Below are positions 33,009 to 57,611 of a stretch of 64,000 bases of DNA, piece by piece; position 1 is the first letter of the stretch; the number at the start of each line of letters is the position of its first letter. Source of the DNA: Patescibacteria group bacterium (GTDB taxonomy: Bacteria; Patescibacteriota; Patescibacteriia; Patescibacteriales; UBA12465). The translations under genes and the position numbers were made by a program. The DNA is taken from the NCBI GenBank assembly GCA_041649315.1, contig JBAZNJ010000003.1:38690-102689 (forward strand), in the 5' to 3' direction. A model generated the notes under the pieces. That model saw only the letters and a list, made by a program, of their open reading frames with translations, had not been told where the DNA came from and made no database searches.

Positions 33009-33677
33009 ATGCCGCAGAATAATTTTTCCGATCAAGGTTTGAATAATTCCGGTTCCGGATCTAATCCGGAAAAATTACCCAAGGCGCAGAAAACCGCGGT
33101 TTGGTTTTTGTCGGTTTTAGCGCTCATGATTTTTGCCGGCTGGCTTTGGCAAATTCAGAACCATATCAATAGCCCTTTTGCTTATCCGGCTAATAAAGCC
33201 GCTTCGGAGTTAATTATTGAAAGCGATTATTTAATAGTTCTGCAGAATCGGGATACAGATAGCGACGGCTTATCCGATTATGATGAAATTTATGTTCATA
33301 AAACCTCGCCATACTTAGAAGATACAGATAGTGACGGTTTAAGTGATTATGAAGAAATTAAGGCCGGAACCGATCCGACTTGTCCGCAAGGGAAAAATTG
33401 TTTAGTGCCGGAAACGACCGGAGAATTAACGGGCGGAACGGTTTCCGGTTTGAACGCCGTTATAGTTGATCCTTTATTAGGAACAGCCGGAAGCGGCTTG
33501 TATGGAACAAATGAAGAAATTTTACAAAATGTTTTAGCCGGTAATATTGATGCCGCGACTTTACGTGCGTTATTGCTTCAGAGTGGCGCCGTGGCCGAAG
33601 ACCTGGATAAGATCAGCGACGAGGATTTGATGCGGAGTTATCAGGAAACCTTAGAGAGCCAAGAGCTAGCCGAGTAA
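33009..33677 (+). CDS. Membrane-anchored protein with thrombospondin-type-3-like Ca-binding repeats
   Basis: A TM helix (AVWFLSVLALMIFAGWLW) is followed by two DxDxDGxxDxxE repeats: DTDSDGLSDYDEIYVHKTSPY and DTDSDGLSDYEEIKAGTDP. Confidence 0.6.
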   Translation: MPQNNFSDQGLNNSGSGSNPEKLPKAQKTAVWFLSVLALMIFAGWLWQIQNHINSPFAYPANKAASELIIESDYLIVLQNRDTDSDGLSDYDEIYVHKTSPYLEDTDSDGLSDYEEIKAGTDPTCPQGKNCLVPETTGELTGGTVSGLNAVIVDPLLGTAGSGLYGTNEEILQNVLAGNIDAATLRALLLQSGAVAEDLDKISDEDLMRSYQETLESQELAE

Positions 33678-33697: not shown

Positions 33698-36600
33698 ATG
33701 AAAAAATTTTTTTCCAAAAATAAGCCGAAGAAGAATAATGATAAAAAAGTCCTTATTGGTTTTCTTCTGGCTTTTTTTATTTTATTTTCGGCCATCGCGC
33801 CGCTTAAGCCGGTTCGGGCGCAGATTCCATTGCCAGTAATAGAGACAGCCTCTCTTCCAGTTACGGTTCAAACGGTTAAACAAAGCATTTGGCAAGTAGC
33901 GGCTAAAGTTTTAAAAAAAGCCGGTTCAATCGCCTTTCAGCGAACTTTAAGCACGGCGCTTAATAAGATTGCTTACGATGCCGCAACTTATATCGGATCC
34001 GGCGGTCCCGGACAAAAGCCCTTATATGTTAAAGAAGAGCTGGGCGATTATCTGACTAAAATTGGCGACGAAGCGGCCGGAACTTTTATTGAGAGTTTTG
34101 TTAATAATTTAAATAGAGAAGGCACGGACGATTGTAATGCTTCTTTAAATAGTTGCCAAGAAAATTGTAACCGAGAATATGAAGATTCTCAGGGGGATAT
34201 CGGGGCCGCTATGGAAAGGCAAGAGACCTGTTTAGACGCCTGTGAGGCGCAATCAACGTCTTGCGCCTCAAAAAACACTAGTTATTATGCGAAAGGCGGA
34301 AGCGCGATTACTACTAATGTTTGTCGGCCGTCATCAATAGAAGCGAAGATGAAAATCGCTTTAGGCCTCACGCAATATACTCGGCCGCAGGGTCCGAATT
34401 GTACGGCTTCGCAGATGATTGCTAATTGGGAAAACGATATCACGAAGAAGATTGAAGACCTTCGGGATCCTAATTTTATTAATAATATACCGGGATTTTT
34501 AGACCCGGTCTCTAATGATTTAGGAATTTATTTGATTGCTCGGACGGATTTGATGAATAAAGCAATTATTGACACGGAAACATCTAAAGCCGGTTTTATC
34601 GCTAAACAGGGCTGGCTTGATGTCCGTAATATCGCTGGTGATCAAGAAGGGGCGCCTAATCAGGCGGAGAGAGAATTAGAGCAAGCGGAAAATTTACAAA
34701 ACGCTCAGCTCGGTAAAGTTACCGGTGATATTCTTGTTGACGCCGCCAATGTTTTCTTAAATCAATTAGCGATTACCGCTTTTAGCGATATTACGAAGAA
34801 TATAAGTAATGCTTTATCAAGCCGGGGTAATATCCATTGGGATAACGAAGATTCTGCGGTTTCCGGTTCTATACTCGGCGACACGAGCGACCCGAACGTG
34901 ATGTATGGCGTCGGGAATGTTACGGAGATTACTAGCAAGCTGATCGAGCCGCAGTTTGATTCTCAGACCAATTATAATATCCTATCGGATCTATCCGTTT
35001 GTCCGGATAAGGATAACCCCGGGCCGAATAACTGCGTGATTGATTCTAAATTCATGCAGGCGATTTCGGAAAAAAAGACCGTGGCCGAGGCTTTGGAAGG
35101 CGGATTTTTGAATAGCGATTGGCAGGTGACGATAGACGCTAAAAAAGATAGTTATATATCAAGTTATTCATTGCGCAATATTTCAGTTTTGCGCAAATAT
35201 CGGATTTTGCCGGTCGGTTGGGAAACCGCGGCGAATAAAGCGAGCGAATTGGGCGTTAAAGCGACTTTAATTGATTTGCTTTCCTGTTTTGATCCTAATG
35301 ACGAATATCGGGAATATAGCGCGGAATTTAACCAGAGGGATCAGGATTGGTGCCGTGGCTTGATCGATCCGAATTGGGTCTTAAAAGCGCCGGCGAATTA
35401 TTGCGGGAAAGAAGGGATTGGTGCCCAGATTTTAAGCAAGACGGTTATTCCTGGCGCGGATTCCGGAGCTTACTCTACTTTAAGCGAGGTCAACTTAGTC
35501 CGGGCTGAGGATTATTGCGCGGATGAACAGACCTGTATAAAAGAAAAGAGCGATGGCAGCTGCGAGGCCTATGGCTATTGTAATGAAGAAAGGCGGGTTT
35601 GGAATTTCGGGACTGATTCTTGCGAGCCGGTTTATAATACCTGCCAGTCATTTACTAATACGGCGAACGGTAGTACGGCCGCTTATCTGAAGAATACTTT
35701 AGATTATGCCGCTTGCGATCCGGATAGTTCTGGTTGCCGGCAGTACTCTTTATCCGGCGCTTACAGCGTTTCAACGGGAACGATTTCTTGGAATTATTCG
35801 CCGACTCTTTATTTAAATAAGAATTTAAAAACCTGTTCGGCTAAAGACGAGGGTTGTACAGAATTTTTGCGCGTTAAGCCGACTTGGGGCGCGAATTTAA
35901 TAATGAATTCGGATTTGAACGCTTATGATATTGATAGTAATCCGCCGGAGAGTGATGGTTGGTATATTTCACATTCCACGGATCCTCTTCTTGTGATTGA
36001 CGCCACAGTTGAGCCGGGAGGTGCGACCGGGCGAGTTTTAAAAATAATGACCGAGGGCCCGGGTGGATTATTGTCTAATTCGGCCCATTCTCTTTTGCCG
36101 GCCAATTTTCAATTATTACCTGGTCAATCCTATACTTTAAGCGCCGATGTTTATTTGCTTGAGGGCGACAGCTTAACTTTATTTGCCGGCAGTTCGGCTA
36201 CCGAAGGATTTAGCGCGACCATGGCTGAGAAAAATGCCTGGCGGCATCTGAGCGTTACCCGAAGCGCCGGCGCCGGTTATAATGAAGGGAATTTCGGTCT
36301 TTATGTTAATTCCGATGAAAAGGCCTTTAATAAATTTTATGTTAAGAATCTTAAATTTGAAGCCGGAGATTGGGAAACCGCTTATCGCCCTTACGGCACC
36401 TTCAAGGTTTACGAGAAGCTCTTGCCGCCTTATTTAGAGAATGTTTGCTATCAGGATATTTCAAGCGCGACTAAGGATTATAATTTAAAGAGCGACGCGC
36501 CGGCTGTCTGTTCCAATTATGCCCGGAAGTGTAACAAGGAAGAGGTTGGATGCGAAACGTATTCCACGGATGGTTTTTCCGTTTCCGCCCAGGTTGAAAA

Positions 36601-39600
36601 TAGTGATTATTGTCCGTCCCAGTGCCTCGGGTATGATGTTTATGTGGCAAAAGCCGGATATTTTAATTTAGCTATGGCGGAAAATCTTATTCCGGAAAAT
36701 GCTGTTTCTTGTACGGCCGCGGCCGCCGGTTGTAGCGAGTTTACTAATTTAGACGCGGTTGCTCAAGGCGGGGAACAGAAGGAATATTATACTTCTCTTA
36801 AGCAGTGTATTAAACCGAACACGAGCGACTGCGCGACCTTTTATTCCTGGGAAGGGACGACGGCCGGCTATCAGCTTCGGAGTTATAATTTAAAGAAGAG
36901 CGGGACGACATTAATTGAACCGGCCGTAACTTCGCCTGAGCTCGGCGACAGCGGTCAGCCGCTTTGTAATGTTGCGATTTATAATTTGCCGGTGAATGAT
37001 CCGGAGTATAATCCGGATTGCCGGGAATTTTATAATTCCGCCGGCCAGGTTTCTTACCATTTAGCTTCAAAAACTATCACTTGTTCGGATAATTGTCATT
37101 CTTACCGTTTGAGCGAAAATAATGTTGATAAGAATATCAGAAGCGCGACGGTTTGTGCTAATCGGAGCGGCCATTGGGAGGCGGCGACCGCTTCTTGCTA
37201 TGTCTGCTTGAACGGCGGCGTTTGGGATTCCGGCCATAACGCCTGTATTTACCAGGCGATTCCAGGCGAGGGTCAGGCCTGTCGGGCGAGCGATAACGGT
37301 TGTCGCGAGTATAACGGTTCGCTTGGCAATAATGTTCGTTTGCTTTCTTATTATGACTTTGAAAGCGGTTTGGATGGCTGGTCGTCGGATTGCGACGGTT
37401 CAGTCGCAATCGCTAATGTTTCTAATGATCGCGACGGACATTCCTTAGTTTATTCTCCGACCACCTGTTTGGCCGAGATTAAGGTTTCCGGCCTGGTCCG
37501 TTCCGGCGCCGCTTATACCGTAAGATTTTTAGCCCGGGCCAGCTCCGTTAACGATGTAGATTTAAAGATTTATTTCTTGAATAAAGAAACTAACGCTCGC
37601 TCTTACTTTAATCTTAATGAAGAAGGGGTAGTAGTTAAAGGCGGCGGCGAATGGAATATTTATACGGCAAATTTAGATATGCTTGATCATTCGATCGGGG
37701 CCGATGAGGTGTTCGCGATTGATTCTTCCGAGCTTTTATATATTGATAATCTTACTTTATCGGAAATTACCGATCGTTATTATCTGATTAAGAATTCCAG
37801 TAATATACCCGATGTTTGCTATTATGATATTTTTGATAATTATCGCGGTGCCGATTATAATCTTGGCTGTACGCGTTATATTGATCGCGACGGCTTGGCC
37901 CATAATCTCCATAAATTCTCGTCCCTTTGTCCGGATTCGGCCGTCGGTTGCGAACAGCTGATTGCGACTCAAAATTATACTCCGGCCGGCCGCGGTATCT
38001 GGAATGATACGAATAATAATGGCGTTTGCGATTCCAGCGAAGGCGATTGTGTTTATGTTCCGGGTGATGCCGCGCTTTACGCCGTTTATGATCCGGCTAA
38101 GCAATGCAACGCTGCCGATTTTGGCTGTAGTCGTTTAGGCGAAGCCCAAGGCGGCGAGACGCTTACCGCTTGGTCGGATGTTTTCAAGCTTAATAATCCA
38201 AATCAATATAATCAGATTATTTGCGGTCTTGACGCGGTCGGTTGTGAAGAATGGCGGAATAATGATGATAGTAGTTTTAGTTATTTTAAGAATCCGGGTA
38301 GCGCGGTCTGCGTTTATCGTTCGGCTAAAGACGATCCGGAAGCGGTCGGTAAGGCCTGGTATAGGATTCCGGTTAAGCGTTGTGATGCGAACGGAAATAA
38401 GGAGATTGATGGGGCGGAAAAGGGAAGTAAGGCCTGTTTAAGTGATGCGGATTGCGGCACTGCGGCCTGCCTTATTGATAATAATGATTATCCTTGCGAG
38501 GTTTCTTATTATAAGACAATTGGCACCGGTGGGCTTGGTAATCGCGTTCCGACGCCGGTTAACGCGGTCGGGCTTTGCGATGCCGCTTCTTCCGGCTGTA
38601 GCGAATATATTGATCCCCTAACGCAGTTTGCCGCTAATTTGGTTATTAATTCTAGCTATATCGAGAATTCAAGCGGGAAGCATGACGGCTGGGCGACAAC
38701 GACCGATGATACCTGGAATGGCGCTGATTTAGCGGACAATCAACAGCTCATCGGCTTAGATCATAATAAGCTTTATAGCTTTACGGTGAGCGGTAGTACG
38801 GCCGGCGCGGTTACTTTAGATTTTTTAAGTGAAGTCCGGACTTTGCAGGCTGATAATAATTTTAGTAATCCAGTTAATCGTTTGACTTTTTCCGGTTCGA
38901 ATATCCAGGCAATAATCTTTAATTCTCTTAATAATTTCCAGGCGCTCATAACCGGCGGAACCTCAACTAAAGATATCAAAGTAAAAGAATTGGCCATCGG
39001 TTATCAGAAGCAGTCTGAGATTGATAAGACCACTTGTAACGGCGTAGTTAATTTTGATAACGGCTGCATTCTCTTTAATGAACGGAGCATCAGTGCCGGC
39101 GGGAATTTAAGTTCTTTGAGTTCGGGTTGGGACGCTTATGCGACAAGTGGCCGGGCGCCGCAGCTATGTTCAAGCCGGACCGGTTCCTGCAATTCCAACG
39201 CTTTAATTAAAGTCCGGCCGGATCGGGTTTGTTCAAAATGGCTTGATTGCGTCACTTATGGCTTAGATAATGATGGCGAGCGGGTCTGTTACGCGCTCGG
39301 CGAATGTAATCGCCTTGATGATAAGAATGAATGCGCAAATTATGTTAACGCTTCCGCCGTGCCGCAGATCCATGCTTTTAGCAAAGAAGACGATAAGAAC
39401 GCGACCGGCTATACTTTACTTGGCAAGTATTATTTAGGCGGCATGAAAGAAGTCGGTATTGATACTGAGGCCCATTTTGATTTTGAGAGCCGCGGAATAA
39501 GCCTGGGTTGCAACGAGAACTATAATGGTAATGGTGCCGCTTGCGCTTTTGAATCAAGTTTAAGTTCCGAGCTTTTGGTCTTGGAGCCGGAAGGAGCCCC

Positions 39601-41896
39601 GACTGATTATCCGGCGCATGGCCGCGGCTACCTTAAGGTTCCGGGCCAGTATAATATCTTTACGATGCCAATCGGTTCGTCAGTCGTGGTTTACGGCGGC
39701 CAGGATTATTATATAAATTATCTCGTCAATACCAGGAATTCCGGCACGGCCGCCCGTTTGCGGGTTATTAATGCCGAAAGTGGCGTGGTCTTGGCGACCT
39801 TTACCGATATCGCTGATTCCGGCTGGGAACGCAAAATTCATAAGTTCCGGATCAGTACTACCGGCGAGCATAAGATCAATATCGTTTTGACCTCGTCATC
39901 TGACGAAGAACGCTATATCTATTTTGATGATATAAATATTGAGCCGGTGCTTAAGGTCGGCGACTATAAAACGGCGGACGGCAAGGATGACGAAGCGAAA
40001 AATTACGTGGTTCGCGACTGCCGTTTGTATCCGGAAGTCGGAAGTTTAAGTTGCGAGTCATATAATGATAATGTTGTGAGGAGCGGTTTATACGGCTATT
40101 GTCTGCAATATGATGCCTATAACCCTGGCGTCTGCGCTCTCTGGCATCCGATTGACGAAATCGGTTCATCCGCTTCGTCCGCCAAAAATTCCCTTGGCTA
40201 TAAAGGAAAGTTCCCATTATATTATTGCACAGAGGCCGACGGAAATTTTGAGCTGGTGAAGAAGATTGTTGGGTTCCGTATTAGCACAGGAGAAGTTGAT
40301 CCCATTAGCGCATTACATTGTTATGGTAACGGGCCGCATCCTGAATTGTGCGGGACGAGTGATGAGATATATTATGCTGATGGTTGTGGTGAATCTTCGG
40401 CCGGCAAAGAGCAGGCTAGAGCTGCTTGTCGGCTTTGCAATCCCGATGGTTACGAAGTAAGTAATCCTGATTATATCCCGGTTCTTAGAATGAATTCTGA
40501 TAGTAAATGGTATCATCTTGATCAGCTGTGGTGTATCCCTAATCAAGATAAATTATTAATTGAAACAAAAAAGAGGAGCTTAGTAGACCTTGGTTGGGAG
40601 TCCAGTTGGTCACAGGGGTGGGACCCTTCGTATTATGAAGGATGGGTTCCTTATGATGGAAATTTAAATGAATTTAAATGTTACAATGTTAACGATGATA
40701 ATGGATGTGCTGTATTTGACGGTCCGGAAGTAAACACAGTCACAGAAATTTATCAAAAAGATCAGATAGTATCAAGGGAGGCGGCTAATTATACACCCCC
40801 GGTTACTATTCGTTCGGGTGGCGTAAATAATGAGGAAGATTTGAAATTAATTTCTGGTTCTGATGACGAAGTTTTCCGTATCCGCTGTAACCGTTTCACT
40901 CAACTCGTTGACGCCGCCGGTAATAATAAGGCCTGGGTCGGCCGGGCCGGAATAGGAACCAGCGCCAATACTACGCCGACCTTCTTTGATTACGGTGAAG
41001 AAACTAAGACCGAGTCGTATTCCTCGGATATTATTAAATACGGCCGCAGCCGCGAGGATATTCCTTTCGGTGCCGCTGTTATCCCGGACGGCGTGGATAT
41101 CGCCGATATTAATGAGCCGATTTATCTGCGTAACCAATATTCCGCCAAGAACCAGGAAGAAATCTTGGCTGGCCGGCCTTACGGCTGTTCGGCATATAGC
41201 AGTGGGAAAGCTCATCTGGGTTGTGACAACATCGGCCAATGCAGTGGCGATCCGAATGTTTTCTGTATTTATTCAAGCGATTCAAACTCGGATTATGATA
41301 TCAATGCCAAGAGCTGTGTCAGCGGCGGTTATGGAACTTGTCAGAAATTATGGCAGACGCCTTTGGTTACCTTGTCAGCAATAGACAGTGATAATTATAA
41401 TATCTTAAAAACTTTGTTCTATAAACAGTATTCTCATTATGAAGCGGATAATGAGGGTTACAAGGAATCGGTTAGTAGTAAATATACTTGGAGTAGCAAC
41501 AGGCCGAGAATTTGCGGCGACAGTAGCGGCACTTCCCGGACTCCGTCCGACGCCTGGTGCGGGGTTTTTCCGAAAGTCGCTAATTTGTCCCTGCGTTCCG
41601 GCAGTCGGGCCTTAACGGCTATGAAAGGCACGATTCCGGAATCCGGACTCTACGCCCTGTCGTTTACGAGCACGGTTGATAAGGAGCAGGAGCCGCTCCG
41701 GCAGATTGTCATCGCCTGGAATGACGACAGCATCCAGGCTATTACCGGCCAGGACAGCCGGCCGCAGGCCAGCCAGCCCCATACTTTCTATCATTATTTT
41801 TCCAAAGGCGACGCTTATAATATTCAGGTTAAGGTTTTTGACAACTGGGATTATTTCGGCTGTAGCAAATCCGGCGCGCCGCTTCAATGTCCGTAA
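33698..41896 (+). CDS. Giant (2732 aa) exported cysteine-rich surface protein with CBM/jelly-roll-like modules and a PKD-like C-terminus
   Basis: One uninterrupted 8.2-kb ORF with a signal peptide (…LKPVRA/QIP). I counted ~98 Cys by hand. An x-G-C-x-E/Q-Y/F motif recurs ~11 times (DEGCTEFL, AAGCSEFT, DNGCREYN, SSGCSEYI ...). Four segments have CBM4/9-like signatures (e.g. YYDFESGLDGWSS...AAYTVRFLARAS). The C-terminus is IVIAWNDDS...HTFYHYFSKGDAYNIQVKVFDNWDYFG. Confidence 0.8.
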   Translation: MKKFFSKNKPKKNNDKKVLIGFLLAFFILFSAIAPLKPVRAQIPLPVIETASLPVTVQTVKQSIWQVAAKVLKKAGSIAFQRTLSTALNKIAYDAATYIGSGGPGQKPLYVKEELGDYLTKIGDEAAGTFIESFVNNLNREGTDDCNASLNSCQENCNREYEDSQGDIGAAMERQETCLDACEAQSTSCASKNTSYYAKGGSAITTNVCRPSSIEAKMKIALGLTQYTRPQGPNCTASQMIANWENDITKKIEDLRDPNFINNIPGFLDPVSNDLGIYLIARTDLMNKAIIDTETSKAGFIAKQGWLDVRNIAGDQEGAPNQAERELEQAENLQNAQLGKVTGDILVDAANVFLNQLAITAFSDITKNISNALSSRGNIHWDNEDSAVSGSILGDTSDPNVMYGVGNVTEITSKLIEPQFDSQTNYNILSDLSVCPDKDNPGPNNCVIDSKFMQAISEKKTVAEALEGGFLNSDWQVTIDAKKDSYISSYSLRNISVLRKYRILPVGWETAANKASELGVKATLIDLLSCFDPNDEYREYSAEFNQRDQDWCRGLIDPNWVLKAPANYCGKEGIGAQILSKTVIPGADSGAYSTLSEVNLVRAEDYCADEQTCIKEKSDGSCEAYGYCNEERRVWNFGTDSCEPVYNTCQSFTNTANGSTAAYLKNTLDYAACDPDSSGCRQYSLSGAYSVSTGTISWNYSPTLYLNKNLKTCSAKDEGCTEFLRVKPTWGANLIMNSDLNAYDIDSNPPESDGWYISHSTDPLLVIDATVEPGGATGRVLKIMTEGPGGLLSNSAHSLLPANFQLLPGQSYTLSADVYLLEGDSLTLFAGSSATEGFSATMAEKNAWRHLSVTRSAGAGYNEGNFGLYVNSDEKAFNKFYVKNLKFEAGDWETAYRPYGTFKVYEKLLPPYLENVCYQDISSATKDYNLKSDAPAVCSNYARKCNKEEVGCETYSTDGFSVSAQVENSDYCPSQCLGYDVYVAKAGYFNLAMAENLIPENAVSCTAAAAGCSEFTNLDAVAQGGEQKEYYTSLKQCIKPNTSDCATFYSWEGTTAGYQLRSYNLKKSGTTLIEPAVTSPELGDSGQPLCNVAIYNLPVNDPEYNPDCREFYNSAGQVSYHLASKTITCSDNCHSYRLSENNVDKNIRSATVCANRSGHWEAATASCYVCLNGGVWDSGHNACIYQAIPGEGQACRASDNGCREYNGSLGNNVRLLSYYDFESGLDGWSSDCDGSVAIANVSNDRDGHSLVYSPTTCLAEIKVSGLVRSGAAYTVRFLARASSVNDVDLKIYFLNKETNARSYFNLNEEGVVVKGGGEWNIYTANLDMLDHSIGADEVFAIDSSELLYIDNLTLSEITDRYYLIKNSSNIPDVCYYDIFDNYRGADYNLGCTRYIDRDGLAHNLHKFSSLCPDSAVGCEQLIATQNYTPAGRGIWNDTNNNGVCDSSEGDCVYVPGDAALYAVYDPAKQCNAADFGCSRLGEAQGGETLTAWSDVFKLNNPNQYNQIICGLDAVGCEEWRNNDDSSFSYFKNPGSAVCVYRSAKDDPEAVGKAWYRIPVKRCDANGNKEIDGAEKGSKACLSDADCGTAACLIDNNDYPCEVSYYKTIGTGGLGNRVPTPVNAVGLCDAASSGCSEYIDPLTQFAANLVINSSYIENSSGKHDGWATTTDDTWNGADLADNQQLIGLDHNKLYSFTVSGSTAGAVTLDFLSEVRTLQADNNFSNPVNRLTFSGSNIQAIIFNSLNNFQALITGGTSTKDIKVKELAIGYQKQSEIDKTTCNGVVNFDNGCILFNERSISAGGNLSSLSSGWDAYATSGRAPQLCSSRTGSCNSNALIKVRPDRVCSKWLDCVTYGLDNDGERVCYALGECNRLDDKNECANYVNASAVPQIHAFSKEDDKNATGYTLLGKYYLGGMKEVGIDTEAHFDFESRGISLGCNENYNGNGAACAFESSLSSELLVLEPEGAPTDYPAHGRGYLKVPGQYNIFTMPIGSSVVVYGGQDYYINYLVNTRNSGTAARLRVINAESGVVLATFTDIADSGWERKIHKFRISTTGEHKINIVLTSSSDEERYIYFDDINIEPVLKVGDYKTADGKDDEAKNYVVRDCRLYPEVGSLSCESYNDNVVRSGLYGYCLQYDAYNPGVCALWHPIDEIGSSASSAKNSLGYKGKFPLYYCTEADGNFELVKKIVGFRISTGEVDPISALHCYGNGPHPELCGTSDEIYYADGCGESSAGKEQARAACRLCNPDGYEVSNPDYIPVLRMNSDSKWYHLDQLWCIPNQDKLLIETKKRSLVDLGWESSWSQGWDPSYYEGWVPYDGNLNEFKCYNVNDDNGCAVFDGPEVNTVTEIYQKDQIVSREAANYTPPVTIRSGGVNNEEDLKLISGSDDEVFRIRCNRFTQLVDAAGNNKAWVGRAGIGTSANTTPTFFDYGEETKTESYSSDIIKYGRSREDIPFGAAVIPDGVDIADINEPIYLRNQYSAKNQEEILAGRPYGCSAYSSGKAHLGCDNIGQCSGDPNVFCIYSSDSNSDYDINAKSCVSGGYGTCQKLWQTPLVTLSAIDSDNYNILKTLFYKQYSHYEADNEGYKESVSSKYTWSSNRPRICGDSSGTSRTPSDAWCGVFPKVANLSLRSGSRALTAMKGTIPESGLYALSFTSTVDKEQEPLRQIVIAWNDDSIQAITGQDSRPQASQPHTFYHYFSKGDAYNIQVKVFDNWDYFGCSKSGAPLQCP

Positions 41897-41910: not shown

Positions 41911-41948
41911 AAAAAAAGAGCCGTTTGTTAAGCAAACGGCTTTTTTGG
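41911..41948. terminator. Bidirectional intrinsic terminator between the giant gene (+) and the lipoprotein gene (-)
   Basis: An A-run (41911-41917), stem GCCGTTTG (41920-41927), loop TTAAG, stem CAAACGGC (41933-41940), and a T-run (41941-41946). Confidence 0.75.
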
Positions 41949-41957
41949 TAGTTTTTT

Positions 41958-42374
41958 CTATTCTAGATAAAAATCTAAAGTACAATCTTTTTCTAGAACG
42001 ATTGTTTTTTTATCGCTATCGATAATGTAAAATTCTTCAGGAGTATCAAAGGCGGCACCGGCATGAACCAAGATTTCCTTGCCATAGTATTTTTCTAGAT
42101 TTTCCCCTTCTATGACAAGCTTTAGAGTTTTACTTTTGCTTTCTCCAATAAGAACGAGAGGTTCTTCTGTTGCCAGATCTTTTACAATCCCATCGCTAAA
42201 TATAAACACATAATCATCCGGCAAAATAATATTTGCCGTGATAGTTATGCTTTTCGGAAGCGTTTCTTCCGGAGTTTCAGCTGGGTCCGGATCCGGTTTT
42301 ATAGGATCCTTTTCGCACGATGCGGCTATGGCTACCATAGCGACAAGCATCAAAAAATACATTAATTTTTTCAT
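41958..42374 (-). CDS. Small lipoprotein, unknown function
   Basis: The signal peptide has a lipobox (LMLVAMVAIAAS/C). The protein is 138 aa and AT-rich. A consensus promoter lies upstream. Confidence 0.6.
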   Translation of the reverse strand: MKKLMYFLMLVAMVAIAASCEKDPIKPDPDPAETPEETLPKSITITANIILPDDYVFIFSDGIVKDLATEEPLVLIGESKSKTLKLVIEGENLEKYYGKEILVHAGAAFDTPEEFYIIDSDKKTIVLEKDCTLDFYLE

Positions 42375-42427
42375 GATATATAAATTTTAGTTTTAAATGA
42401 ACAAATTTAGAAATTTTTACTAAATAT

Positions 42428-42456
42428 ATTATATCATATATTATGATATTTGTCAA
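42428..42456 (-). promoter_or_regulatory. Consensus sigma-70 promoter for the lipoprotein gene
   Basis: Read on the minus strand: TTGACA (plus 42451-42456), 17 nt, TATAAT (plus 42428-42433). A second TTGACA copy lies 22 nt upstream; on the plus strand the repeats are TTTGTCAATAG at 42449-42459 and 42471-42481. Confidence 0.6.
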
Positions 42457-42601
42457 TAGATTTTAATGATTTTGTCAATAGTTTCATTTTTCTTTAATTT
42501 TAGCTAAATTCATTTATCGTGTTTTTGTTGTCTCCTTATCTATTTTTCCTATTAAAAATTTTTTAAATAGTGTATAATTTAGTTATAATTAATAAATCCT
42601 G

Positions 42602-43324
42602 ATGAATAGTATGAATCTTGATGAACAGCTGCTGAACGCCCCGGCGGCCGCCAGGGAAAAAGCGGAACAGGAGAAAGGAATCGGCCGGGGCGGCGCTGTG
42701 GGCGGACAAAGCCGGAACGCGAGCGCGGAACGCGCCGGCGCTTTGCGGCGGGCTCAAAAGTCGGAGAACCCGGCGGCGAAGAATCGGGCGGCTGATAGTG
42801 CCGGCCAAGGAGAGGCCCAACCGAAATCTTTACGGGAAGCAGTTTTACAAAATAAAAAAAAGCGGGAAGCCGCGGCGGCTAAAGAGGGCTTGAAAGAAAA
42901 AGCGACAAGCGCGGCTGTGTCGCCGATGCGCAAGGGCGTATCGCGGGCGCTTCGTTCGGCCTGGCTGAATTTGATTAGCAGTTTCGGCTTAACCTTAATT
43001 TGGATCAATATCCATGTTATCTTAGGAATGATTTTCGGGAATAAAGTTTTTTGTAAATTAGGCGAAGAATGGGGCGAGGCCTCGCCGACGCGCTTAGCGG
43101 CGGTAGCCGGCGCTAGTAAAAGTCAAAAGAAGTCCGCTAAATTCGTAGAAGCGGTAGAGCCCATGGGAGTCGGATATCTTGATCTCGGTTGTCTGGTCTT
43201 GATTATCGCCGTGGCTGTTCTTGTTCGGATTATCGTCGGCGCGATGACTTTAGAATGGGAAACTTTGAAAGTGATGTTCAGCGCCGTTTGGGATATGTTT
43301 AAATCTTTTGTGCCAGGAGCTTAG
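42602..43324 (+). CDS. Membrane protein with GC-rich Arg/Ala/Gly-rich disordered N-terminus and two TM helices
   Basis: 240-aa ORF. The N-terminal ~110 aa are low-complexity (AAAREKAEQEKGIGRGGAVGGQSRNASAERAGALRRAQ...). The TM helices are LISSFGLTLIWINIHVILGMIF and LGCLVLIIAVAVLVRIIVGAM. The start could be the ATG at 42611. Confidence 0.5.
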   Translation: MNSMNLDEQLLNAPAAAREKAEQEKGIGRGGAVGGQSRNASAERAGALRRAQKSENPAAKNRAADSAGQGEAQPKSLREAVLQNKKKREAAAAKEGLKEKATSAAVSPMRKGVSRALRSAWLNLISSFGLTLIWINIHVILGMIFGNKVFCKLGEEWGEASPTRLAAVAGASKSQKKSAKFVEAVEPMGVGYLDLGCLVLIIAVAVLVRIIVGAMTLEWETLKVMFSAVWDMFKSFVPGA

Positions 43325-43375
43325 ATTTATTATTGTTTGGATTTTGGAGCATTGTGAGGTTTATAATTTTTTAAA

Positions 43376-45985
43376 ATGTTTTTCAAGAAAATAAAAAAAT
43401 ATAAATGGATTGCTTCTCTGGTTTTGTTAACCGGCGTATTTTTTTTAGCCCCTCTTATTTGTTTTGCCTCTACTTCTTTTAGTGATGCCATGGGTAATTT
43501 TGTCGGCGGTATAATTGCGTTATTTATCCAGATTTTAGGAGTACTTTTAACTTTAATAGTTAAAGGTTTGGTTTTGATCGCCCGTTATCAGCATTTTATT
43601 GACGCGCCGGCCGTGGAAGTAGGTTGGGTAATGGTTCGGGACCTCTGCAATATGTTTTTTGTTGTGGTTTTGTTAATTATTGCTTTTGGAACGATTTTAC
43701 ATTTAGAAAATTATAATTATAAAAAATGGCTGCCGAAGTTGGTGTTAATGGCGGTGTTGATTAATTTTTCTAAGACGATTTGCGGCGTTTTAATTGATAT
43801 TGCTCAGGTCGTGATGCTTACCTTTGTTAATTCTTTCAAGGATATTGCCGGGGCGAATTTGATTGATATCTTAGGGATTACCGATATTGTAACTATGGCT
43901 GAAAATACATCTGACGCCGGTTTTGGGACGATTGTCGGCGCTTATTTCTTAGGTTTAATTTACATGATCGTGGCGATAATCGTTATTGCCACGATGTTAG
44001 CGATGCTGGCGATGCGCTTGGTAACGATTTGGCTTTATGTTGTCTTGTCGCCGCTTGCTTATCTTTTGTCCGCTTTTCCGGGCGGTCAATCCTGGGCTTC
44101 GCGCTGGTGGAGCGATTTTACTAAAGCGCTCATTATCGGTCCGGTAATCGCTTTCTTCCTTTGGTTGTCTTTGGCCGCTTTACAGACCGGTAATCCAACG
44201 GTTGATGTCCAGTTAGCGGCGAGTACGGAAGGAGAATATTCCGCCACGTCAACGGTCGCCGTTTCTAAGGCCTCGTCGCCCGGCGCCTTGATTAAATTCG
44301 TAGTCGCAATCGGCATGCTTATTGGTGGCTTGAAGATTTCTCAGGAAATCGGCGGCGAAGCCGGCGCAATGGCTGGAAAAGGAATGGCAGCGATTGGGAA
44401 GGCGAAGAATTGGGGGATGAGTGGAGTAAAGAGTATTGCCAAACAACCATTCTCTTGGAGCGCCGATAGGTTACACGAGAAAACAGGTGTCGATTTAAAT
44501 CTCAAAAGAGCTTGGAAAGAAACCCAAGCGCAAAGAGCTGAAAACAGGGAAAAACGTTATGGGCGCGGGGTTCTATCCGCCAGAGAGGCGATGGAAAAAG
44601 GGGGTCGTATACATGGGATATTGGCTATGACTGGCAGTCCTCGTGACGCTTGGGACCAGATTACTTCATGGAAAGGCATTAAGAAACGAATAAAAGGCGG
44701 GAAAAGAATGAAAATGCTAAAAACAGAAGGAATTGATGAAGAAAAGCGCGCTAAAAATGAAAAAGCCAGGTATGATTTTGAGGAAAAATGGGCAAATACT
44801 GATCCTAACAGTAAAGACGCTAATGGAGTTAATGAAAGGACTAAAATGGTTCAAGATATTAAAAACGAAAGAGATAGTATTGCTCAAGGAATTAAGACCA
44901 GCCGGAATCGAATAACCAGTATAGATAAAGAATTGGAAGAAGAAAAAAAGAAAGATCCTCGGGTTCAAGATAAGACAAAAATTAATAGTCTTGAAAATGA
45001 GCGCTCGCAAAACGAAGGTAGAATTAGTGATCTTAAGAAAAAAGGAGAAGAACTTAAGCCTATTCAGCAATTTATTAAAGGGGTCCAGGATAGAGGAGAA
45101 GAGCGTAAAGTGTATTCTAATAAGGATAAGGAAGATATTAGAGCTAATAAAAATAGAGTGGCCGGTGATGCCACTAAGGCTAGAGAAAAAATTGAAAGAA
45201 ATATTCCCGATTACGCTTTCGAGGCCCGGGCAACTGAACAAAAATTAGTTTCTCAAGAAGCGTCAAAGATTAATGATATTACCGACGCGACTGAATTAGG
45301 GAGGATTTTAAAAGATGCGATTAAAGGGCATGATACCACCATGGTTAAAGCGATTACTTTAAAAATGACTAAAGATGGAAATGATAATGAATTTTTACAA
45401 CCTTTAGCTGGGCGCACCGATCATGTTGGTTTGAAAGATTTAATGAAACAATTTGCTGATAAGAAATCAGATAATTATGCCGGGTTTAGCGAGCAAGAAG
45501 CTTTTTCTCTCGGTAGTCAAATTGCCGAAATAAATAAGGCCACCAATCATTGGGCGGCGACTGCGGCTTATGTAATGGAAGATGGTCAGTGGCGAGAAAC
45601 AACTAATTTAGAACATAATGAAATAATGACCACGGAGAGCGGTAAGCGGCAGCAGGAACAATGTATACGCAACGATAATCGGCTTGCTTACGGTTATCAT
45701 GATGTCGGCGGTGAGTTCCATATCAATGCTGGCGGGGTTTTGAAATTACAGAGCATGGATAATGCCCATGGTCATGGCAGAATGAATACGATGAATGAAA
45801 GTGCCGCTAAATATTGTTATGAGGCTATTATGAAAAATGATAAATTAAAAGCCGAATTTAGCAAGATAAATAAAGATAGTGGCAAATCTTTAATAGACGT
45901 CTTAGAGACTCGCCTTGGAGGTCTAAAGGATAATAGTGATATAAGTTCTAGGTATGAACGAGTTGTTAATGATTTAGGCGTTTAA
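43376..45985 (+). CDS. Polytopic membrane protein (VirB6/TrbL-like topology) with long Lys/Glu-rich coiled-coil and a globular C-terminal domain
   Basis: 869 aa. A signal-like N-terminus is followed by ~7 TM helices, including the block VGWVMVRDLCNMFFVVVLLIIAFGTILH...LMAVLINFSKTICGVLIDIAQVVMLTF. A charged region of ~250 aa comes next. The functional assignment is tentative. Confidence 0.4.
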   Translation: MFFKKIKKYKWIASLVLLTGVFFLAPLICFASTSFSDAMGNFVGGIIALFIQILGVLLTLIVKGLVLIARYQHFIDAPAVEVGWVMVRDLCNMFFVVVLLIIAFGTILHLENYNYKKWLPKLVLMAVLINFSKTICGVLIDIAQVVMLTFVNSFKDIAGANLIDILGITDIVTMAENTSDAGFGTIVGAYFLGLIYMIVAIIVIATMLAMLAMRLVTIWLYVVLSPLAYLLSAFPGGQSWASRWWSDFTKALIIGPVIAFFLWLSLAALQTGNPTVDVQLAASTEGEYSATSTVAVSKASSPGALIKFVVAIGMLIGGLKISQEIGGEAGAMAGKGMAAIGKAKNWGMSGVKSIAKQPFSWSADRLHEKTGVDLNLKRAWKETQAQRAENREKRYGRGVLSAREAMEKGGRIHGILAMTGSPRDAWDQITSWKGIKKRIKGGKRMKMLKTEGIDEEKRAKNEKARYDFEEKWANTDPNSKDANGVNERTKMVQDIKNERDSIAQGIKTSRNRITSIDKELEEEKKKDPRVQDKTKINSLENERSQNEGRISDLKKKGEELKPIQQFIKGVQDRGEERKVYSNKDKEDIRANKNRVAGDATKAREKIERNIPDYAFEARATEQKLVSQEASKINDITDATELGRILKDAIKGHDTTMVKAITLKMTKDGNDNEFLQPLAGRTDHVGLKDLMKQFADKKSDNYAGFSEQEAFSLGSQIAEINKATNHWAATAAYVMEDGQWRETTNLEHNEIMTTESGKRQQEQCIRNDNRLAYGYHDVGGEFHINAGGVLKLQSMDNAHGHGRMNTMNESAAKYCYEAIMKNDKLKAEFSKINKDSGKSLIDVLETRLGGLKDNSDISSRYERVVNDLGV

Positions 45986-45991
45986 ATAAAT

Positions 45992-47005
45992 ATGGGAAAA
46001 GATAAAACAAAAAAAATATTAGATCAAAATTATGCCGATTTGTTGCCGGAAATAGTTGATTATATAGTTTCTCATGACGAGATTGCTAAGGCCTTAAAGC
46101 TGCGGCGAGTTTTAAGTAAAGCTGTTGATATAAATATTAATGAACTAAAACTACAACCTAAACTATTAAAATTTTATGAAGAAATTATTTTAAAGTTAAA
46201 ATTTGCGTGCCTGCCGACGTTAGATGAAAAGGAGGTTATCAGTTTAATTAGAGATGATTTTTGTTTCCAATTTAGGCTTAAAAATTATGATGTTTTGGAA
46301 AAAATATCCGGAAAAATTTTAAATATAATCGCGATTAACGATCGGAATATTTTTAAGGAAAATTTAAAGAAAGCTTTTTTAGAAAATATCGAGATTATAT
46401 CCGCTAACTATGAGATAAAATATGTTAAAGATTGGATTAAAAATTATGTAGCTAAGGTTGGGATAGACAAGCCGGATAATTTAGCTAAAGCCCAATATTT
46501 AAGCTCTTTAAAAAATCATAGAAATATTAGCCCTGAGGAATATGAGAATTTAGCCGTTTTGTTTAAATTTTATGATCGTCTTAATATCCCTTCTGATTCG
46601 CCGGAAGGATTTGACGAAGAGCCGCCGATAAAAATGAACGGGCAGTTATATATTTTCAGGAAAGGAGTGTTAGAACCGGTTAAGCGCGCCCAAAATGTTC
46701 TAGAAGCAATAAAATTACTTGGAGATAGTAAAGAAATAAATATAATTGAGAAAGAATTTTTAGATAGAGATTTAAGAAAAGCAGATTTATCAGATAAAAA
46801 ATCTCGGCCTGATATTCTAGTAACGGACGAGATTGATCCCCAGTTAAAATCAATTATAAAAATAGGAAATAATGGCGTCAAAAAAAATATTATTTCAAAA
46901 GAAATTAGCATTCAGGAATTAGAAGCTGTTTTAAAAAATTACCATTCTTCTAGCTTAGAGTATAAAGCAATAAAAGAGGAAATTAGCCGTCTGAGAAAAA
47001 AATAA
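45992..47005 (+). CDS. Hypothetical cytoplasmic protein
   Basis: 337-aa ORF starting 6 nt after the preceding gene. It has no TM helix or signal peptide and no recognisable motif. Confidence 0.5.
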   Translation: MGKDKTKKILDQNYADLLPEIVDYIVSHDEIAKALKLRRVLSKAVDININELKLQPKLLKFYEEIILKLKFACLPTLDEKEVISLIRDDFCFQFRLKNYDVLEKISGKILNIIAINDRNIFKENLKKAFLENIEIISANYEIKYVKDWIKNYVAKVGIDKPDNLAKAQYLSSLKNHRNISPEEYENLAVLFKFYDRLNIPSDSPEGFDEEPPIKMNGQLYIFRKGVLEPVKRAQNVLEAIKLLGDSKEINIIEKEFLDRDLRKADLSDKKSRPDILVTDEIDPQLKSIIKIGNNGVKKNIISKEISIQELEAVLKNYHSSSLEYKAIKEEISRLRKK

Positions 47006-54212: not shown

Positions 54213-55400
54213 ATGCCTCAAGCATTTTATGCTCGTAAAATTTATCCAGAATTAAAAGAGCATTTAGAGAATAAACAAATTACCGTTTTGACTGGTATGC
54301 GTCGGACCGGCAAAACGACCTTAGTTCAACACTTATTGGCGGAAATTAAAAGTACCAATAAGGCTTTTTTTGATTTGCAGAAAATCAGTAATCAGGAATT
54401 GTGGTCGCAGAAGAATTTTGATAATATTATTTTGAATTTAGAGCGGCAGGGGCTTAATATTAAAGAAAAGATTTATTTAGGCTTGGATGAAATTCAATTA
54501 TTGCCGGAAGTAACCGGGGTTGTTAAATATCTTTATGATCATTATAATATCAAGTTTATTATTACCGGCTCCAGTTCCTATTATTTAAAAAATCTTTTTA
54601 CCGAATCTTTGTCCGGCCGAAAAAAAATATTTGAATTGTTTCCTTTAGACTTCGGAGAGTTCCTGGTTTTTAAAAATATTTCCGCCAGTTCGGTTGATTT
54701 TGCCGCGTCAGAATTTAATTCGACGGAATATGAAAGACTAAAAAATTTTTATGAAGAATATGTCAGATTTGGCGGGTTTCCGGAAGTAGTGTTGGCCGCC
54801 ACGGAGAGAATCAAGAAAGATTTGCTTCAGGATATTATCAGTTCTTATATTAATATTGATATTAAAATTTTGGCGGATTTCAAAGACAGCCGTAATTTAT
54901 ATAATCTAATAAAAATGCTGGCGCTGAGGACCGGCACGAAGTTGGATTACTCTAAAATTTCTCGTTTAATAGGTTTATCTCGCCAGACGGTTTTAAATTA
55001 TCTAGATCTTTTTGAAAAGACCTATTTAATTAATCGTGTTTCTATTTTCGCGAACAATCCCGACCGGGAAATCGTTAAGGCGCAAAAAATTTATTTTACC
55101 GATCCCGGATTCTTGGCGGTTCTAGGTGAAGTGAGCGGCGGCGCGAAATTTGAAAATGCGGTTTACGCGCAATTGGCGCGGCAGGGCGAGGTCCGTTACT
55201 ATTCTCTAAAAACCGGCCGGGAAATAGATTTTATTTTTGATAATAATTTAGCGTTAGAGGTTAAAGAAACGCCGGCCGTCGATGATTTGAAAGAACTTTC
55301 TGATTTAGCGGTTAAATCCGGAGTGAAAAAATATCGTTTAATCGGCCGTCATCCGGCTATTAAATTTTCTGATTATATTTGGGGCGGAGATATTAGATAA
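54213..55400 (+). CDS. AAA ATPase with C-terminal DUF4143-type domain (COG1373-like), copy 1
   Basis: Walker A GMRRTGKTT, Walker B LGLDEIQ, ITGSSS, and a wHTH-like middle (LIGLSRQTVLNYLDLFEKTYL). The tail is KIYFTDPGF...EIDFI...LEVK, a PD-(D/E)xK-like pattern. Confidence 0.8.
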   Translation: MPQAFYARKIYPELKEHLENKQITVLTGMRRTGKTTLVQHLLAEIKSTNKAFFDLQKISNQELWSQKNFDNIILNLERQGLNIKEKIYLGLDEIQLLPEVTGVVKYLYDHYNIKFIITGSSSYYLKNLFTESLSGRKKIFELFPLDFGEFLVFKNISASSVDFAASEFNSTEYERLKNFYEEYVRFGGFPEVVLAATERIKKDLLQDIISSYINIDIKILADFKDSRNLYNLIKMLALRTGTKLDYSKISRLIGLSRQTVLNYLDLFEKTYLINRVSIFANNPDREIVKAQKIYFTDPGFLAVLGEVSGGAKFENAVYAQLARQGEVRYYSLKTGREIDFIFDNNLALEVKETPAVDDLKELSDLAVKSGVKKYRLIGRHPAIKFSDYIWGGDIR

Positions 55401-56058: not shown

Positions 56059-57609
56059 ATGGCTAAAAAGAAAAAACAAAAAATCTGGCGGAAAAATTTT
56101 TCTATCCAGAATACTCATTATCAGATGGCGACTCCGGCAATTTTGGATTTTATGATTTATCAGCCGCAAGTTTTTAAGGGAATTTTAAAAGAATGTGTCT
56201 GGATTCAAGAAGGCGATGATAATATTGGTAGTTATTTCCCGATATCCGATTTGCGCCGGATAGTGGAACGGGCGATTTTAACTATTAAAAACAAACCGGC
56301 ATTAATTGATAAAATACATCGGGAGACGATTTTGTATGTCAAAGATTATTCCCGATATGCCAGGAGTTTATTAAAGATGGATTTAAGCCAGTTTAATAAT
56401 AAGAAATTGGCGAAAATATACGACCGATTATTATATTTTCAGATAATCCATCACGCTTGGTCTATTGCGACAACCTGGTTTGTTGATTCTGACGGCGAAG
56501 ATTTCTCTAAGTTATTATTAAAAAAAGCAGAAGCCATCGTTGCCGGTAGTAATTATCAGGCGGTTGATGTTTTTAGTACGCTTACTACTCCCGCCCGCCC
56601 AAGCCAAGCAATTATAGAGGAATTAGCCGCCTGGAAGATTGTCCGGGAAATTAAAGCAGATAGGCGAGCGGCGGCGGTTTTCCGCCGAAATGATACCGCG
56701 AGTATTGAGGCGGGAATAGGCTCCTTGCCGCCGGCTTTAAAAAGAAAAATTTTAAATCATTTTAAAAATTGGCGCTGGCAGCCCTTTACTTATGCCGGGC
56801 CGGCTTATGATTTAGATTATTATTTAGCTTTATGGGCGGGCTGGATTAAGGAGAGGATAGATCCAAAGAAAAAAATTAATGAATTAAAAAATTATTCTTT
56901 AAAAGTTAAAGAGAAAAGGCGGGAGATTATTAAAAATTTAAAAATAAACGCAGCTGATCGTAAATTATTTAAAATCGCCGCGGATATAATTTTTCTTAAA
57001 GCTTATCGCAAAGATGCGGTTTTTTTCGGTATGTATGTTTTAGATAAATTATTAAGAGAAATTGGTGGGCGCTTGGGGTTATCAATTAAGCAAGTTCGGA
57101 TGATTGCCTATTGGGAAATACTGCCGGCCTTGTATCGCGGTTATTTTCCGGCAGATATTTTGAATGATCGAAGAAAATTTAGTGTCTATTATCAGAAAGG
57201 CAAAAATGGGATTATCTATACTGGTGCGCCGGCCAAGAAATTTTTAGCCGGTTTGAATATTGAGAAAGAAATTGTCAAAAAAACTTCCATTATTATCGGC
57301 ACCGTCGTCTGTCCTGGTGAAGCTAAAGGACGAGTGAAGATTATTAATTTGCCGGAAGAGATAGGGAAAATGAATAAAGGCGATATTATGGTCGCACATA
57401 CGACTTTCCCATCTCTTGTTCCGGCCATGAAAAAGGCGGCGGCGATTATCACTGATGACGGCGGTATTACTTGCCATGCGGCGATAGTTTCCCGGGAGTT
57501 AAAAACTCCTTGCGTGGTTGGCACGAAAATCGCCACTAAAATTTTAAAAGACGGTGATTTGGTTGAGGTTGATGCGGATAGGGGGATTGTAAAAATTGTT
57601 AAAAGATAA
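56059..57609 (+). CDS. Swivel (PEP-utilizing enzyme mobile) phosphohistidine-domain protein, paralog 1; unknown ~400-aa N-terminal domain
   Basis: The C-terminus is GTVVCPGEAKGRVKII...GDIMVAHTTFPSLVPAMKKAAAIITDDGGITCHAAIVSRELKTPCVVGTKIATKILKDGDLVEVDADRGIV. No ATP-grasp or PEP-binding TIM-barrel motifs were seen. Confidence 0.75.
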   Translation: MAKKKKQKIWRKNFSIQNTHYQMATPAILDFMIYQPQVFKGILKECVWIQEGDDNIGSYFPISDLRRIVERAILTIKNKPALIDKIHRETILYVKDYSRYARSLLKMDLSQFNNKKLAKIYDRLLYFQIIHHAWSIATTWFVDSDGEDFSKLLLKKAEAIVAGSNYQAVDVFSTLTTPARPSQAIIEELAAWKIVREIKADRRAAAVFRRNDTASIEAGIGSLPPALKRKILNHFKNWRWQPFTYAGPAYDLDYYLALWAGWIKERIDPKKKINELKNYSLKVKEKRREIIKNLKINAADRKLFKIAADIIFLKAYRKDAVFFGMYVLDKLLREIGGRLGLSIKQVRMIAYWEILPALYRGYFPADILNDRRKFSVYYQKGKNGIIYTGAPAKKFLAGLNIEKEIVKKTSIIIGTVVCPGEAKGRVKIINLPEEIGKMNKGDIMVAHTTFPSLVPAMKKAAAIITDDGGITCHAAIVSRELKTPCVVGTKIATKILKDGDLVEVDADRGIVKIVKR

Positions 57610-57611
57610 AT

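Follow-up and report, generated by a model that had tools for sequence, protein, structure and literature searches.

Type IV secretion systems (T4SSs) of Patescibacteria have been described in a 2025 survey and in one epibiont, Southlakia epibionticum, and we compare with them here a locus that encodes a VirB6-like protein at positions 42602–47005 of a 64,000-nucleotide (nt) stretch of DNA, hereafter the window (Patescibacteria group bacterium, assembly GCA_041649315.1, contig JBAZNJ010000003.1, positions 38,690–102,689 of the forward strand). The survey (Quinonero-Coronel et al. 2025, PMC12102498) placed the VirB4 proteins of Patescibacteria in a clade sister to monoderm MPF_FATA and found systems made up of VirB4, TrsD, PrgI, VirB6 and a VirB2-like pilin, which are chromosomal and have no relaxase. 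In the same work ksgA was often found near the T4SS genes, and radA was adjacent to them in class ABY1, where Falkowbacteria are placed; a PrgH profile yielded only 12 of 480 Patescibacteria VirB6 matches, no adhesins were detected, and neighbours without a profile match were left unannotated (PMC12102498).

The T4SS cluster of S. epibionticum (SEML1_0006–0019) includes two proteins of ~1000–1090 amino acids (aa), SEML1_0011 and SEML1_0013, which were labelled 'TrbL/VirB6' or 'type IV secretion system protein' by structure only, with TM-scores of 0.50–0.53 (Wang et al. 2023, PMC10633639). Both were essential for epibiotic growth in the transposon-insertion sequencing (Tn-seq) table, SEML1_0013 being non-essential at one of three time points (PMC10633639). 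Among T4SSs, only that of Patescibacteria has been shown, in Southlakia, to be needed for the growth of its owner. Proteins that combine a VirB6-like domain with a large hydrophilic central or C-terminal domain form a recognised class, 'extended VirB6', in which no role has been assigned to the additional domains (PMC12857230).

The three genes of the locus, all on the forward strand, encode a membrane protein of 240 aa (p240, 42602–43324), a polytopic protein of 869 aa (p869, 43376–45985) and a soluble protein of 337 aa (p337, 45992–47005). An earlier note on the window, made from its letters alone, had grouped them with a lipoprotein gene as four genes without clear homologs and had seen in them a hint of a reduced T4SS-like or novel envelope apparatus; all four open reading frames (ORFs) were found at the same positions in the ORF list. 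We consider it likely that 42602–47005 is the VirB6 module of a monoderm-type Patescibacteria T4SS, composed of p240, p869 and p337, with the ATPase half of the system displaced by an insertion of housekeeping genes. The module is already part of a known system, being one half of the Patescibacteria T4SS described previously (PMC12102498, PMC10633639), and the apparatus is neither reduced nor novel. Nor are the proteins without homologs: p869 has more than 958 relatives in a large protein collection, all from Patescibacteria-type metagenome-assembled genomes (MAGs) and all 'hypothetical', and a search with the membrane domain by itself returned 18,483 cluster representatives. The family is merely unannotated.

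Synteny with the T4SS core and the split of the operon

ORFs of 85 related loci were compared with the window proteins by BLAST and with family hidden Markov models (HMMs). A member of the p240 family is located immediately upstream of the VirB6-like gene in 80 of the 85 loci according to the HMM (76 by BLAST), and a member of the p337 family immediately downstream in 78 (62 by BLAST). Most exceptions are loci cut by contig ends, and the gaps among the three genes typically range from a few nt to a few tens. The trio, which the earlier note had suspected of belonging together, is strongly syntenic.

Further downstream on the same strand, 47 of the 85 loci carry a protein of ~450–540 aa, PrgI/VirB3 (PF12666) and a ~226-aa TraC-N/TrsD-like protein. 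This run follows p337 directly in 31 of those 47, with PrgI starting 2.3–3.0 kb after the VirB6-like gene. The next genes in the relatives encode a 631-aa VirB4 (P-loop_TraG, E 6e-28; TraC_F_IV; CagE_TrbE_VirB), a ~203-aa anchored protein and RadA, and the same gene order was obtained from independent gene calls with precomputed Pfam labels. The most divergent loci, too, keep the trio beside PrgI, the TrsD-like gene and VirB4. No second VirB6 candidate was seen in the T4SS operons of the relatives, and we therefore take the p869 family to be the VirB6 of this system.

Among the alternatives, the one that survives best makes the trio a separate novel envelope machine for exporting, anchoring or operating a giant Cys-rich protein encoded upstream (33698–41896, forward strand, 2732 aa, with a signal peptide and a CBM_4_9 domain), which would lie near T4SS genes in some genomes only. 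Indeed, 61 of the 85 loci have a homologue of the giant gene directly in front of the VirB6-like module, in many of them only 2–30 nt from the p240 homologue; in the window lineage the VirB4 block has moved away and the trio and the giant gene have stayed together; and sequence tests for TrbL fail (see below). However, the divergent loci keep the trio beside PrgI, the TrsD-like gene and VirB4 without any giant gene. It is therefore the T4SS core rather than the giant gene that invariably accompanies the trio, and the giant protein is a clade-specific accessory. Moreover, the giant protein has a normal Sec-type signal peptide with an AxA site and so does not depend on a dedicated exporter, the best fold matches of p869 are VirB6/TrbL proteins in two libraries, and other candidates for the VirB6 role were not seen in these operons. 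Overall, a separate machine appears unlikely.

Searches of the window proteins revealed none of VirB4, VirD4, VirB11, PrgI and TrsD within the 64 kb, in agreement with the earlier note, which had stated the absence of a VirB4/VirD4 ATPase there. From p337 to the end of the contig, housekeeping genes occupy more than 17 kb. The block inserted between p337 and the T4SS core in the window lineage includes pfkB, ahcY, metK, a cytidylyltransferase gene and genes for PEP-utilizer paralogues. In several relatives with this split PrgI is 6–8.5 kb away, and in the closest relative (71% identity) the first T4SS core gene is found 9 kb downstream; in the survey supplement (PMC12102498), the genome of this relative has a 'Yes' in a column that seems to record the presence of VirB4. 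The block of the window is longer than that of the relatives, as it also holds an ABC transporter, an NYN-domain gene, two AAA_14/DUF4143 genes and at least six PEP-utilizer paralogues.

It is also conceivable that the trio is an orphan remnant, the ATPase half having been lost and the remaining genes decaying or being reused for another membrane function; this would correspond to the 'reduced T4SS' of the earlier note. The failure to find VirB4, VirD4, PrgI and TrsD in 64 kb and the long run of housekeeping genes up to the contig end would fit such a loss. On the other hand, all three ORFs are intact, of full length and retain every invariant residue of their families, a T4SS pilin gene has been retained, and the same split is seen in many relatives whose T4SS core is present 6–8.5 kb downstream, as well as in the closest relative with its core gene at 9 kb and its 'Yes' in the supplement. 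The contig ends, in addition, within a paralogue array that probably broke the assembly. Given the split operon in relatives and a contig end inside such an array, the ATPase half of the window genome is therefore most likely on another contig, and we regard an orphan remnant as very improbable.

The VirB6 module became separated from its ATPase half as follows. The ancestral operon contained the trio, the ~450–540-aa protein, PrgI/VirB3, the TrsD-like protein, VirB4, the ~203-aa anchored protein and RadA. In the window lineage, the housekeeping block was inserted after p337, turning the two halves into separate transcription units.

Two observations on the rearranged region may be added. The tandem array comprises at least six paralogues with a C-terminal PEP-utilizers mobile domain, extends from 56059–63796 to the contig end (locus L088, 1–14039), and is interleaved with two AAA_14/DUF4143 ATPase genes (54213–55400 and 61219–62355). 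In another locus (L090, 15157–15414) an 85-aa fragment that matches the N- and C-terminal domains of S-adenosylmethionine synthetase is located between the p337-like gene and the T4SS core, and looks like a remnant of the rearrangement by which metK came to lie within the operon in other lineages.

The VirB6-like protein and its two partners

According to a transmembrane scan, an AlphaFold2 model, Foldseek and a family alignment, p869 consists of three parts. Residues 1–340 (43376–44395) form a signal/anchor helix and a polytopic VirB6/TrbL-like membrane domain with 7–8 transmembrane helices; residues 376–608 (44501–45199) form a Lys/Glu-rich helical coiled coil, variable in sequence and predicted to be cytoplasmic; and residues 615–869 (45218–45985) form a conserved globular alpha/beta C-terminal domain, which we refer to as 'type A'. 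A simple hydropathy scan revealed 7–8 hydrophobic segments that are helical in the model, with the hydrophilic coiled coil and globular domain occupying residues ~350–869. Eighteen Lys and Arg residues follow the last transmembrane helix, placing the C-terminus in the cytoplasm. The predicted local distance difference test (pLDDT) score of the model is 83 overall, 87–96 in the coiled-coil helices and above 90 in the C-terminal domain.

In an alignment of 52 members, conservation was high in the membrane domain (~33–335) and was found again in the C-terminal domain (~640–800), with a variable Lys/Glu-rich stretch in between. Invariant polar residues are located inside the membrane helices (W84 R88 N92 M93 F95, N130 F131 S132, D141 Q144), and the C-terminal domain has five invariant positions (N671, G685, G737, E754 and K757). 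The 'many-TM, conserved-loop look' previously ascribed to the N-terminal third of p869 agrees with this layout, and the motifs quoted for it are invariant columns of the family. In nearly all of the best 150 representatives matched by the membrane domain, it forms the N-terminus of proteins of 800–1200 aa.

The p869 model was compared by Foldseek with 350,542 PDB chains and with the viral library BFVD. The top five PDB matches are all R388 TrwI/VirB6 (prob 0.96–1.0, TMt 0.34–0.48). The best BFVD match is Gp153 of Bacillus phage G (E 6.9e-5, TMt 0.59), and the proteins ranked 5 and 8 are annotated as TrbL/VirB6 (prob 0.92–0.94), that at rank 5 being itself an 'extended' protein of 891 aa. Thus, of the VirB6/TrbL likeness proposed earlier for p869, the part that concerns fold was supported by consistently ranked but borderline matches, and structural likeness is accompanied by strong synteny; the part that concerns sequence profiles was not, as detailed below. 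We conclude that p869 is VirB6-like by fold, topology and operon position, without claiming membership of Pfam TrbL, and that it is an 'extended VirB6' with a VirB6-like membrane domain and a large hydrophilic C-terminal part, a designation that is partly observed and partly inferred.

A known fold for the p869 C-terminal domain was considered and rejected, as it has no PDB, BFVD or Pfam match. This domain is of type A in 48 of the 85 loci and is replaced by a different C-terminus, type B, in the other 37.

By analogy with R388 TrwI/VirB6, the N-terminal domain of 7–8 helices would serve as a central platform or channel of the machine in the cytoplasmic membrane, where VirB2-like pilins, substrates or both may be handled, with the coiled coil and the globular domain facing the cytoplasm.

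p240, as expected from the earlier note, has two hydrophobic segments in a hydropathy scan. Together with the alignment, the scan suggests a disordered basic cytoplasmic N-terminus of ~110 aa, a first transmembrane helix, an external loop carrying the motif F-C-K-L-G-x-E-W, which is invariant in the family, a variable loop and a second transmembrane helix. This conserved T4SS-associated family matches no known one: p240 has no Pfam, NCBIfam or PDB match, and no Pfam match was found in 44 family members. Two identities were considered and rejected by hhalign, namely PrgI/VirB3 (PF12666; 0.4% against the PrgI family of the same loci) and a VirB2 pilin (0.1% against the window pilin). A hairpin of two helices with a disordered cytoplasmic tail would make p240 a lineage-specific membrane partner of the VirB6-like protein.

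The N-terminal motif MxLDEQLL is conserved in the p240 family, and the true start is therefore probably the ATG at 42611, 9 nt past the first ATG. A start at this position leaves a very short leader after the –10 box (42584–42589) of a promoter-like site (TTTAAA-16-TATAAT, 10 of 12 consensus positions; 42562–42589, forward strand), which precedes p240-p869-p337 and may drive all three genes. The GC-rich block that the earlier note had placed at ~42640–42960 was also recovered: GC content is 0.50–0.70 over 42600–43000, compared with 0.11–0.31 in flanking intergenic DNA and ~0.42 in the window. The block encodes the disordered p240 N-terminus, which is rich in Ala, Gly, Arg, Lys and Glu and varies among homologues. 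Foreign DNA was considered as its origin and rejected; the block is a compositional effect, the codon signature of a variable Ala/Gly/Arg-rich disordered region.

p337 is separated from p869 by 6 nt, exactly as noted earlier, and is probably translationally coupled to it. It is a soluble protein without a transmembrane segment in the hydropathy scan, and its model (pLDDT 81.7) shows an all-alpha fold of helical repeats along with a small beta-hairpin, a disordered linker and a helix at the C-terminus. It has no significant PDB sequence match, and Foldseek returned generic helical repeats only (Get4, 14-3-3; E >0.3). The N-terminal ~100 residues of the p337-like proteins switch together with the type of the p869 C-terminus: 43 and 30 loci fall on the A/A and B/B diagonal and none off it. 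This co-variation fits docking of p337 on the cytoplasmic domain of p869. Together with position and topology it suggests that, in the cytoplasm, p337 is probably a partner of the C-terminal domain of p869, on which it might serve as an adaptor that leads to the ATPase module or to the cargo.

A relationship of type-A p337 to the downstream ~500-aa protein or to TrsD was rejected by hhalign. The ~450–540-aa protein found in every case before PrgI (L032, 13771–15357, and equivalents) has its first ~85 residues in common with p337-like proteins of type B (for example L075, 13006–14013; BLAST E 2e-7 to 9e-5), and these two cytoplasmic partners seem to be assembled from shuffled modules.

Several results weigh against the assignment of the trio to a T4SS as its VirB6 module. 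The E-values of the PDB fold matches of p869 are weak (0.07–0.3) and its TM-scores against solved VirB6 structures borderline, although the ranking is consistent across libraries. Pfam and NCBIfam scans of the four flagged proteins gave nothing significant, and PDB sequence-profile searches with the p240, p869 and p337 family alignments gave coiled-coil or low-complexity noise only. PF04610, the TrbL profile suggested earlier as a check, is not matched by the window p869 at E<=1, the family consensus has no Pfam TrbL match, and 79 of the 85 members are unmatched, with none reaching the gathering score. None of the 33 type-B members match PF04610. In favour of the assignment, the remaining six, all among the 52 type-A members, match it along nearly its full length but below threshold (best E 4e-5; 23.9 bits, cut-off 25.9), and weak precomputed matches to PF19590 (TrbL_3) occur in several members of the family. 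In hhalign, the profile of the p869 membrane domain reached a probability of 0.4% against an MPF_T VirB6 profile, compared with 99–100% for positive controls. That profile was built from only three sequences fetched by tblastn (VirB6 of the Ti plasmid and of two Acetobacteraceae plasmids), a set that tblastn did not widen because the VirB6 family diverges too fast. As to the neighbourhood, the A and B types are also two clades, so that their co-variation is confounded by phylogeny and is not independent evidence, and the linkage to the giant gene is clade-specific, the gene being absent from the most divergent loci. For the window genome VirB4, PrgI and TrsD are not visible, as the contig continues for only 2.4 kb after the window. 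Finally, the roles given to p240, p337, the p869 C-terminal domain and the giant protein derive entirely from position, topology and co-variation.

A generic helical-bundle artefact, with p869 being a transporter-like permease, would agree with the weak Foldseek E-values, with the JGI label 'ABC-type multidrug transport ... permease' on the homologue P0013 and with KEGG K01992 on the Southlakia proteins, but is highly unlikely, as ABC or other transporter families are matched by 0 of 85 members in Pfam or NCBIfam, transporters appear in both Foldseek libraries only at prob <=0.09 and not among the top matches, and the operon partners are T4SS genes.

Giant protein, pilin and other genes of the window

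The conserved unit extends upstream to the giant gene and a TSP3 gene in one clade. In addition to its Sec signal peptide, the giant protein has 98 cysteines (3.6%), many of them in Cx6C pairs, one CBM_4_9 domain (residues 1215–1328, Pfam E 7.7e-8) and a DNW motif that is conserved at the C-terminus. In the giant-gene clade the conserved block begins with a gene (33009–33677, forward strand) for a 222-aa protein with an N-terminal membrane anchor (transmembrane segment at residues 28–49) and calcium-binding-type TSP3 repeats (Pfam TSP3_bac, E 8e-11). In 32 of the 85 loci a homologue of this gene is the direct upstream neighbour of the giant gene, often overlapping it or at most 4 nt away, and the two genes are often translationally coupled. 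The giant and TSP3 proteins are probably a surface adhesin pair, and in the clade that has them they would most likely form the surface, host-binding part of the apparatus.

A gene for a DsbA-like thioredoxin is located near the locus (27496–28254, reverse strand), and another is present inside the T4SS operon of a distant relative (L058, 17912–18724). Such genes fit oxidative folding of the disulfide-rich giant protein and of the Cys-rich pilin.

The pilin gene (24301–25227, reverse strand, 308 aa), recognised by the earlier note as TrbC/VirB2-like, passed the PF18895 T4SS_pilin cut-off (E 5.4e-7, 30.0 bits against 26.6). The scan gave transmembrane segments at residues 9–33, 97–128 and 138–158, corresponding to a two-helix hairpin after a signal peptide, and the ~70-aa domain is followed by a Cys-rich C-terminal extension of ~150 aa. 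The gene is unlinked, 17 kb upstream of the module, between genes for PFOR subunits (23323–24213 and 25310–26497).

The fourth of the genes flagged earlier does not belong to the unit. It encodes a lipoprotein-like protein of 138 aa (41958–42374, reverse strand), with a signal peptide followed by AASC, and the N-terminus MKKLMYFLMLVAMVAIAAS-C fits a lipobox signal peptide by eye. NCBIfam matches are weak and cover lipoprotein N-termini only (E 0.02–0.19), among them those of PG1828, BamK and Mfa1; acidic residues follow the cysteine (C-E-K-D). These three families we take to be Bacteroidota proteins, and the lipoprotein gene may be of horizontal origin. The perfect promoter that the note had assigned to it was found at 42456..42428 on the reverse strand, 54 nt upstream of the ATG (TTGACA-17-TATAAT, sigma-70-type with an extended TG), and is the sole 12/12 consensus match in the region. 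A bidirectional intrinsic-terminator-like hairpin with a 15-bp stem (41914–41946) separates the giant gene from the convergent lipoprotein gene. A homologue of the lipoprotein was detected in only three of the 85 loci, redundant entries of one species, the closest relative, and its membership of the apparatus, as proposed earlier, was rejected. The distance from the giant gene to p240 is 705 nt in the window, where it holds the terminator, the lipoprotein gene and its promoter, compared with 2–30 nt in many relatives. The three elements are a recent unrelated insertion, which forced p240-p869-p337 onto a promoter of their own.

The rest of the window carries housekeeping genes of Patescibacteria (rpoB/C, murJ, lepA, recJ, PFOR, leuS, ksgA, an ABC transporter, pfkB, ahcY and metK), and its genome is related to Falkowbacteria. 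Scans of the window for tRNAs and Rfam families gave zero matches. Three more forward-strand ORFs have no Pfam match (7932–9449, 20981–22108 and 22117–22740; 505, 375 and 207 aa). Many reference MAGs that carry a Patescibacteria-type locus and synteny (L007–L009, L016, L019, L021 and others) are titled 'uncultured Gammaproteobacteria bacterium ... binchicken/SRP...', and these titles look taxonomically mislabelled.

Comparison with described systems

VirB6-like proteins are already known in the T4SSs of Patescibacteria, and the locus adds little to this basic picture. It provides several leads. Two unannotated families flank VirB6 in ~92–94% of the sampled related loci; VirB6 itself carries one of two interchangeable cytoplasmic domains that change in step with the N-terminal part of the downstream partner; and a conserved giant carbohydrate-binding surface protein, co-encoded in one large clade, is a candidate host-recognition element, of which surveys had found none. 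T4SS operons of these genomes can be split by housekeeping insertions, and surveys that look only near virB4 therefore miss components. The following appear not to have been described before: the families of p240 and p337, the exchangeable pair of cytoplasmic domains, the association with the giant gene and the break of the operon by housekeeping genes.

Tentatively, these leads may be combined in a single proposal, which we put forward as a possibility: p240 and p337 would be unrecognised core subunits, the variable cytoplasmic domain of VirB6 and p337 would stand in for the missing coupling protein in cargo selection or VirB4 docking, and, in one clade, the giant and TSP3 proteins would be the host-binding adhesin or tip. 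If true, the last of these would fill a gap, the 2025 survey having reported no T4SS adhesin in the phylum.

In structure, p869 is matched best by R388 TrwI/VirB6 (PDB 7O3V, 8RT9, 8RTD), with which it shares a polytopic helical membrane domain and whose operon also contains virB3 and virB4. Reportedly, in the structural work of Macé et al. in 2022, TrwI/VirB6 is the central inner-membrane platform. In contrast to the 869 aa of p869, TrwI has ~260–340 aa and lacks a cytoplasmic extension; R388 is a diderm MPF_T system with VirB5 and VirB7–10, and no sequence-profile relation between the two proteins was detectable.

The extended VirB6 proteins are similar in gene order and domain layout. PrgH of pCF10 and p869 both have at least five hydrophobic helices and a large hydrophilic domain, and the order VirB6-VirB3-VirB4 in Patescibacteria loci matches prgH-prgI-prgJ, although two extra genes, for p337 and the ~500-aa protein, are located between VirB6 and VirB3 in Patescibacteria. 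The giant protein may be likened in its manner of working, and only in this, to the PrgB-type adhesins of Gram-positive conjugation, as both are large Sec-exported surface proteins encoded with a T4SS. It differs from them in having no sequence or domain similarity, no LPxTG anchor, and 2732 aa with 98 cysteines. Like these adhesins, the giant protein, through its CBM_4_9 domain, plausibly binds the envelope of a partner cell or a host polysaccharide.

Of the described cases, the T4SS cluster of Southlakia is the nearest. Its proteins, compared by their published description, resemble the window family in their size of ~1000–1090 aa, their large C-terminal helical domains and their clustering with PrgI, VirB4 and PF18895 pilins. 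They differ in lineage (Saccharimonadia, that is Saccharibacteria, rather than Falkowbacteria-related), in number (two paralogues rather than one) and in the C-terminus, which has ARM-like repeats where p869 has a coiled coil and an alpha/beta domain; none of the giant gene, p240 and p337 was reported beside SEML1_0011 and SEML1_0013. The survey of Patescibacteria T4SSs (PMC12102498) makes no mention of the p240 and p337 families, the giant-gene linkage or the housekeeping split, yet it is the systems surveyed there that the loci of this family match, with the same set of components, ksgA nearby and radA adjacent.

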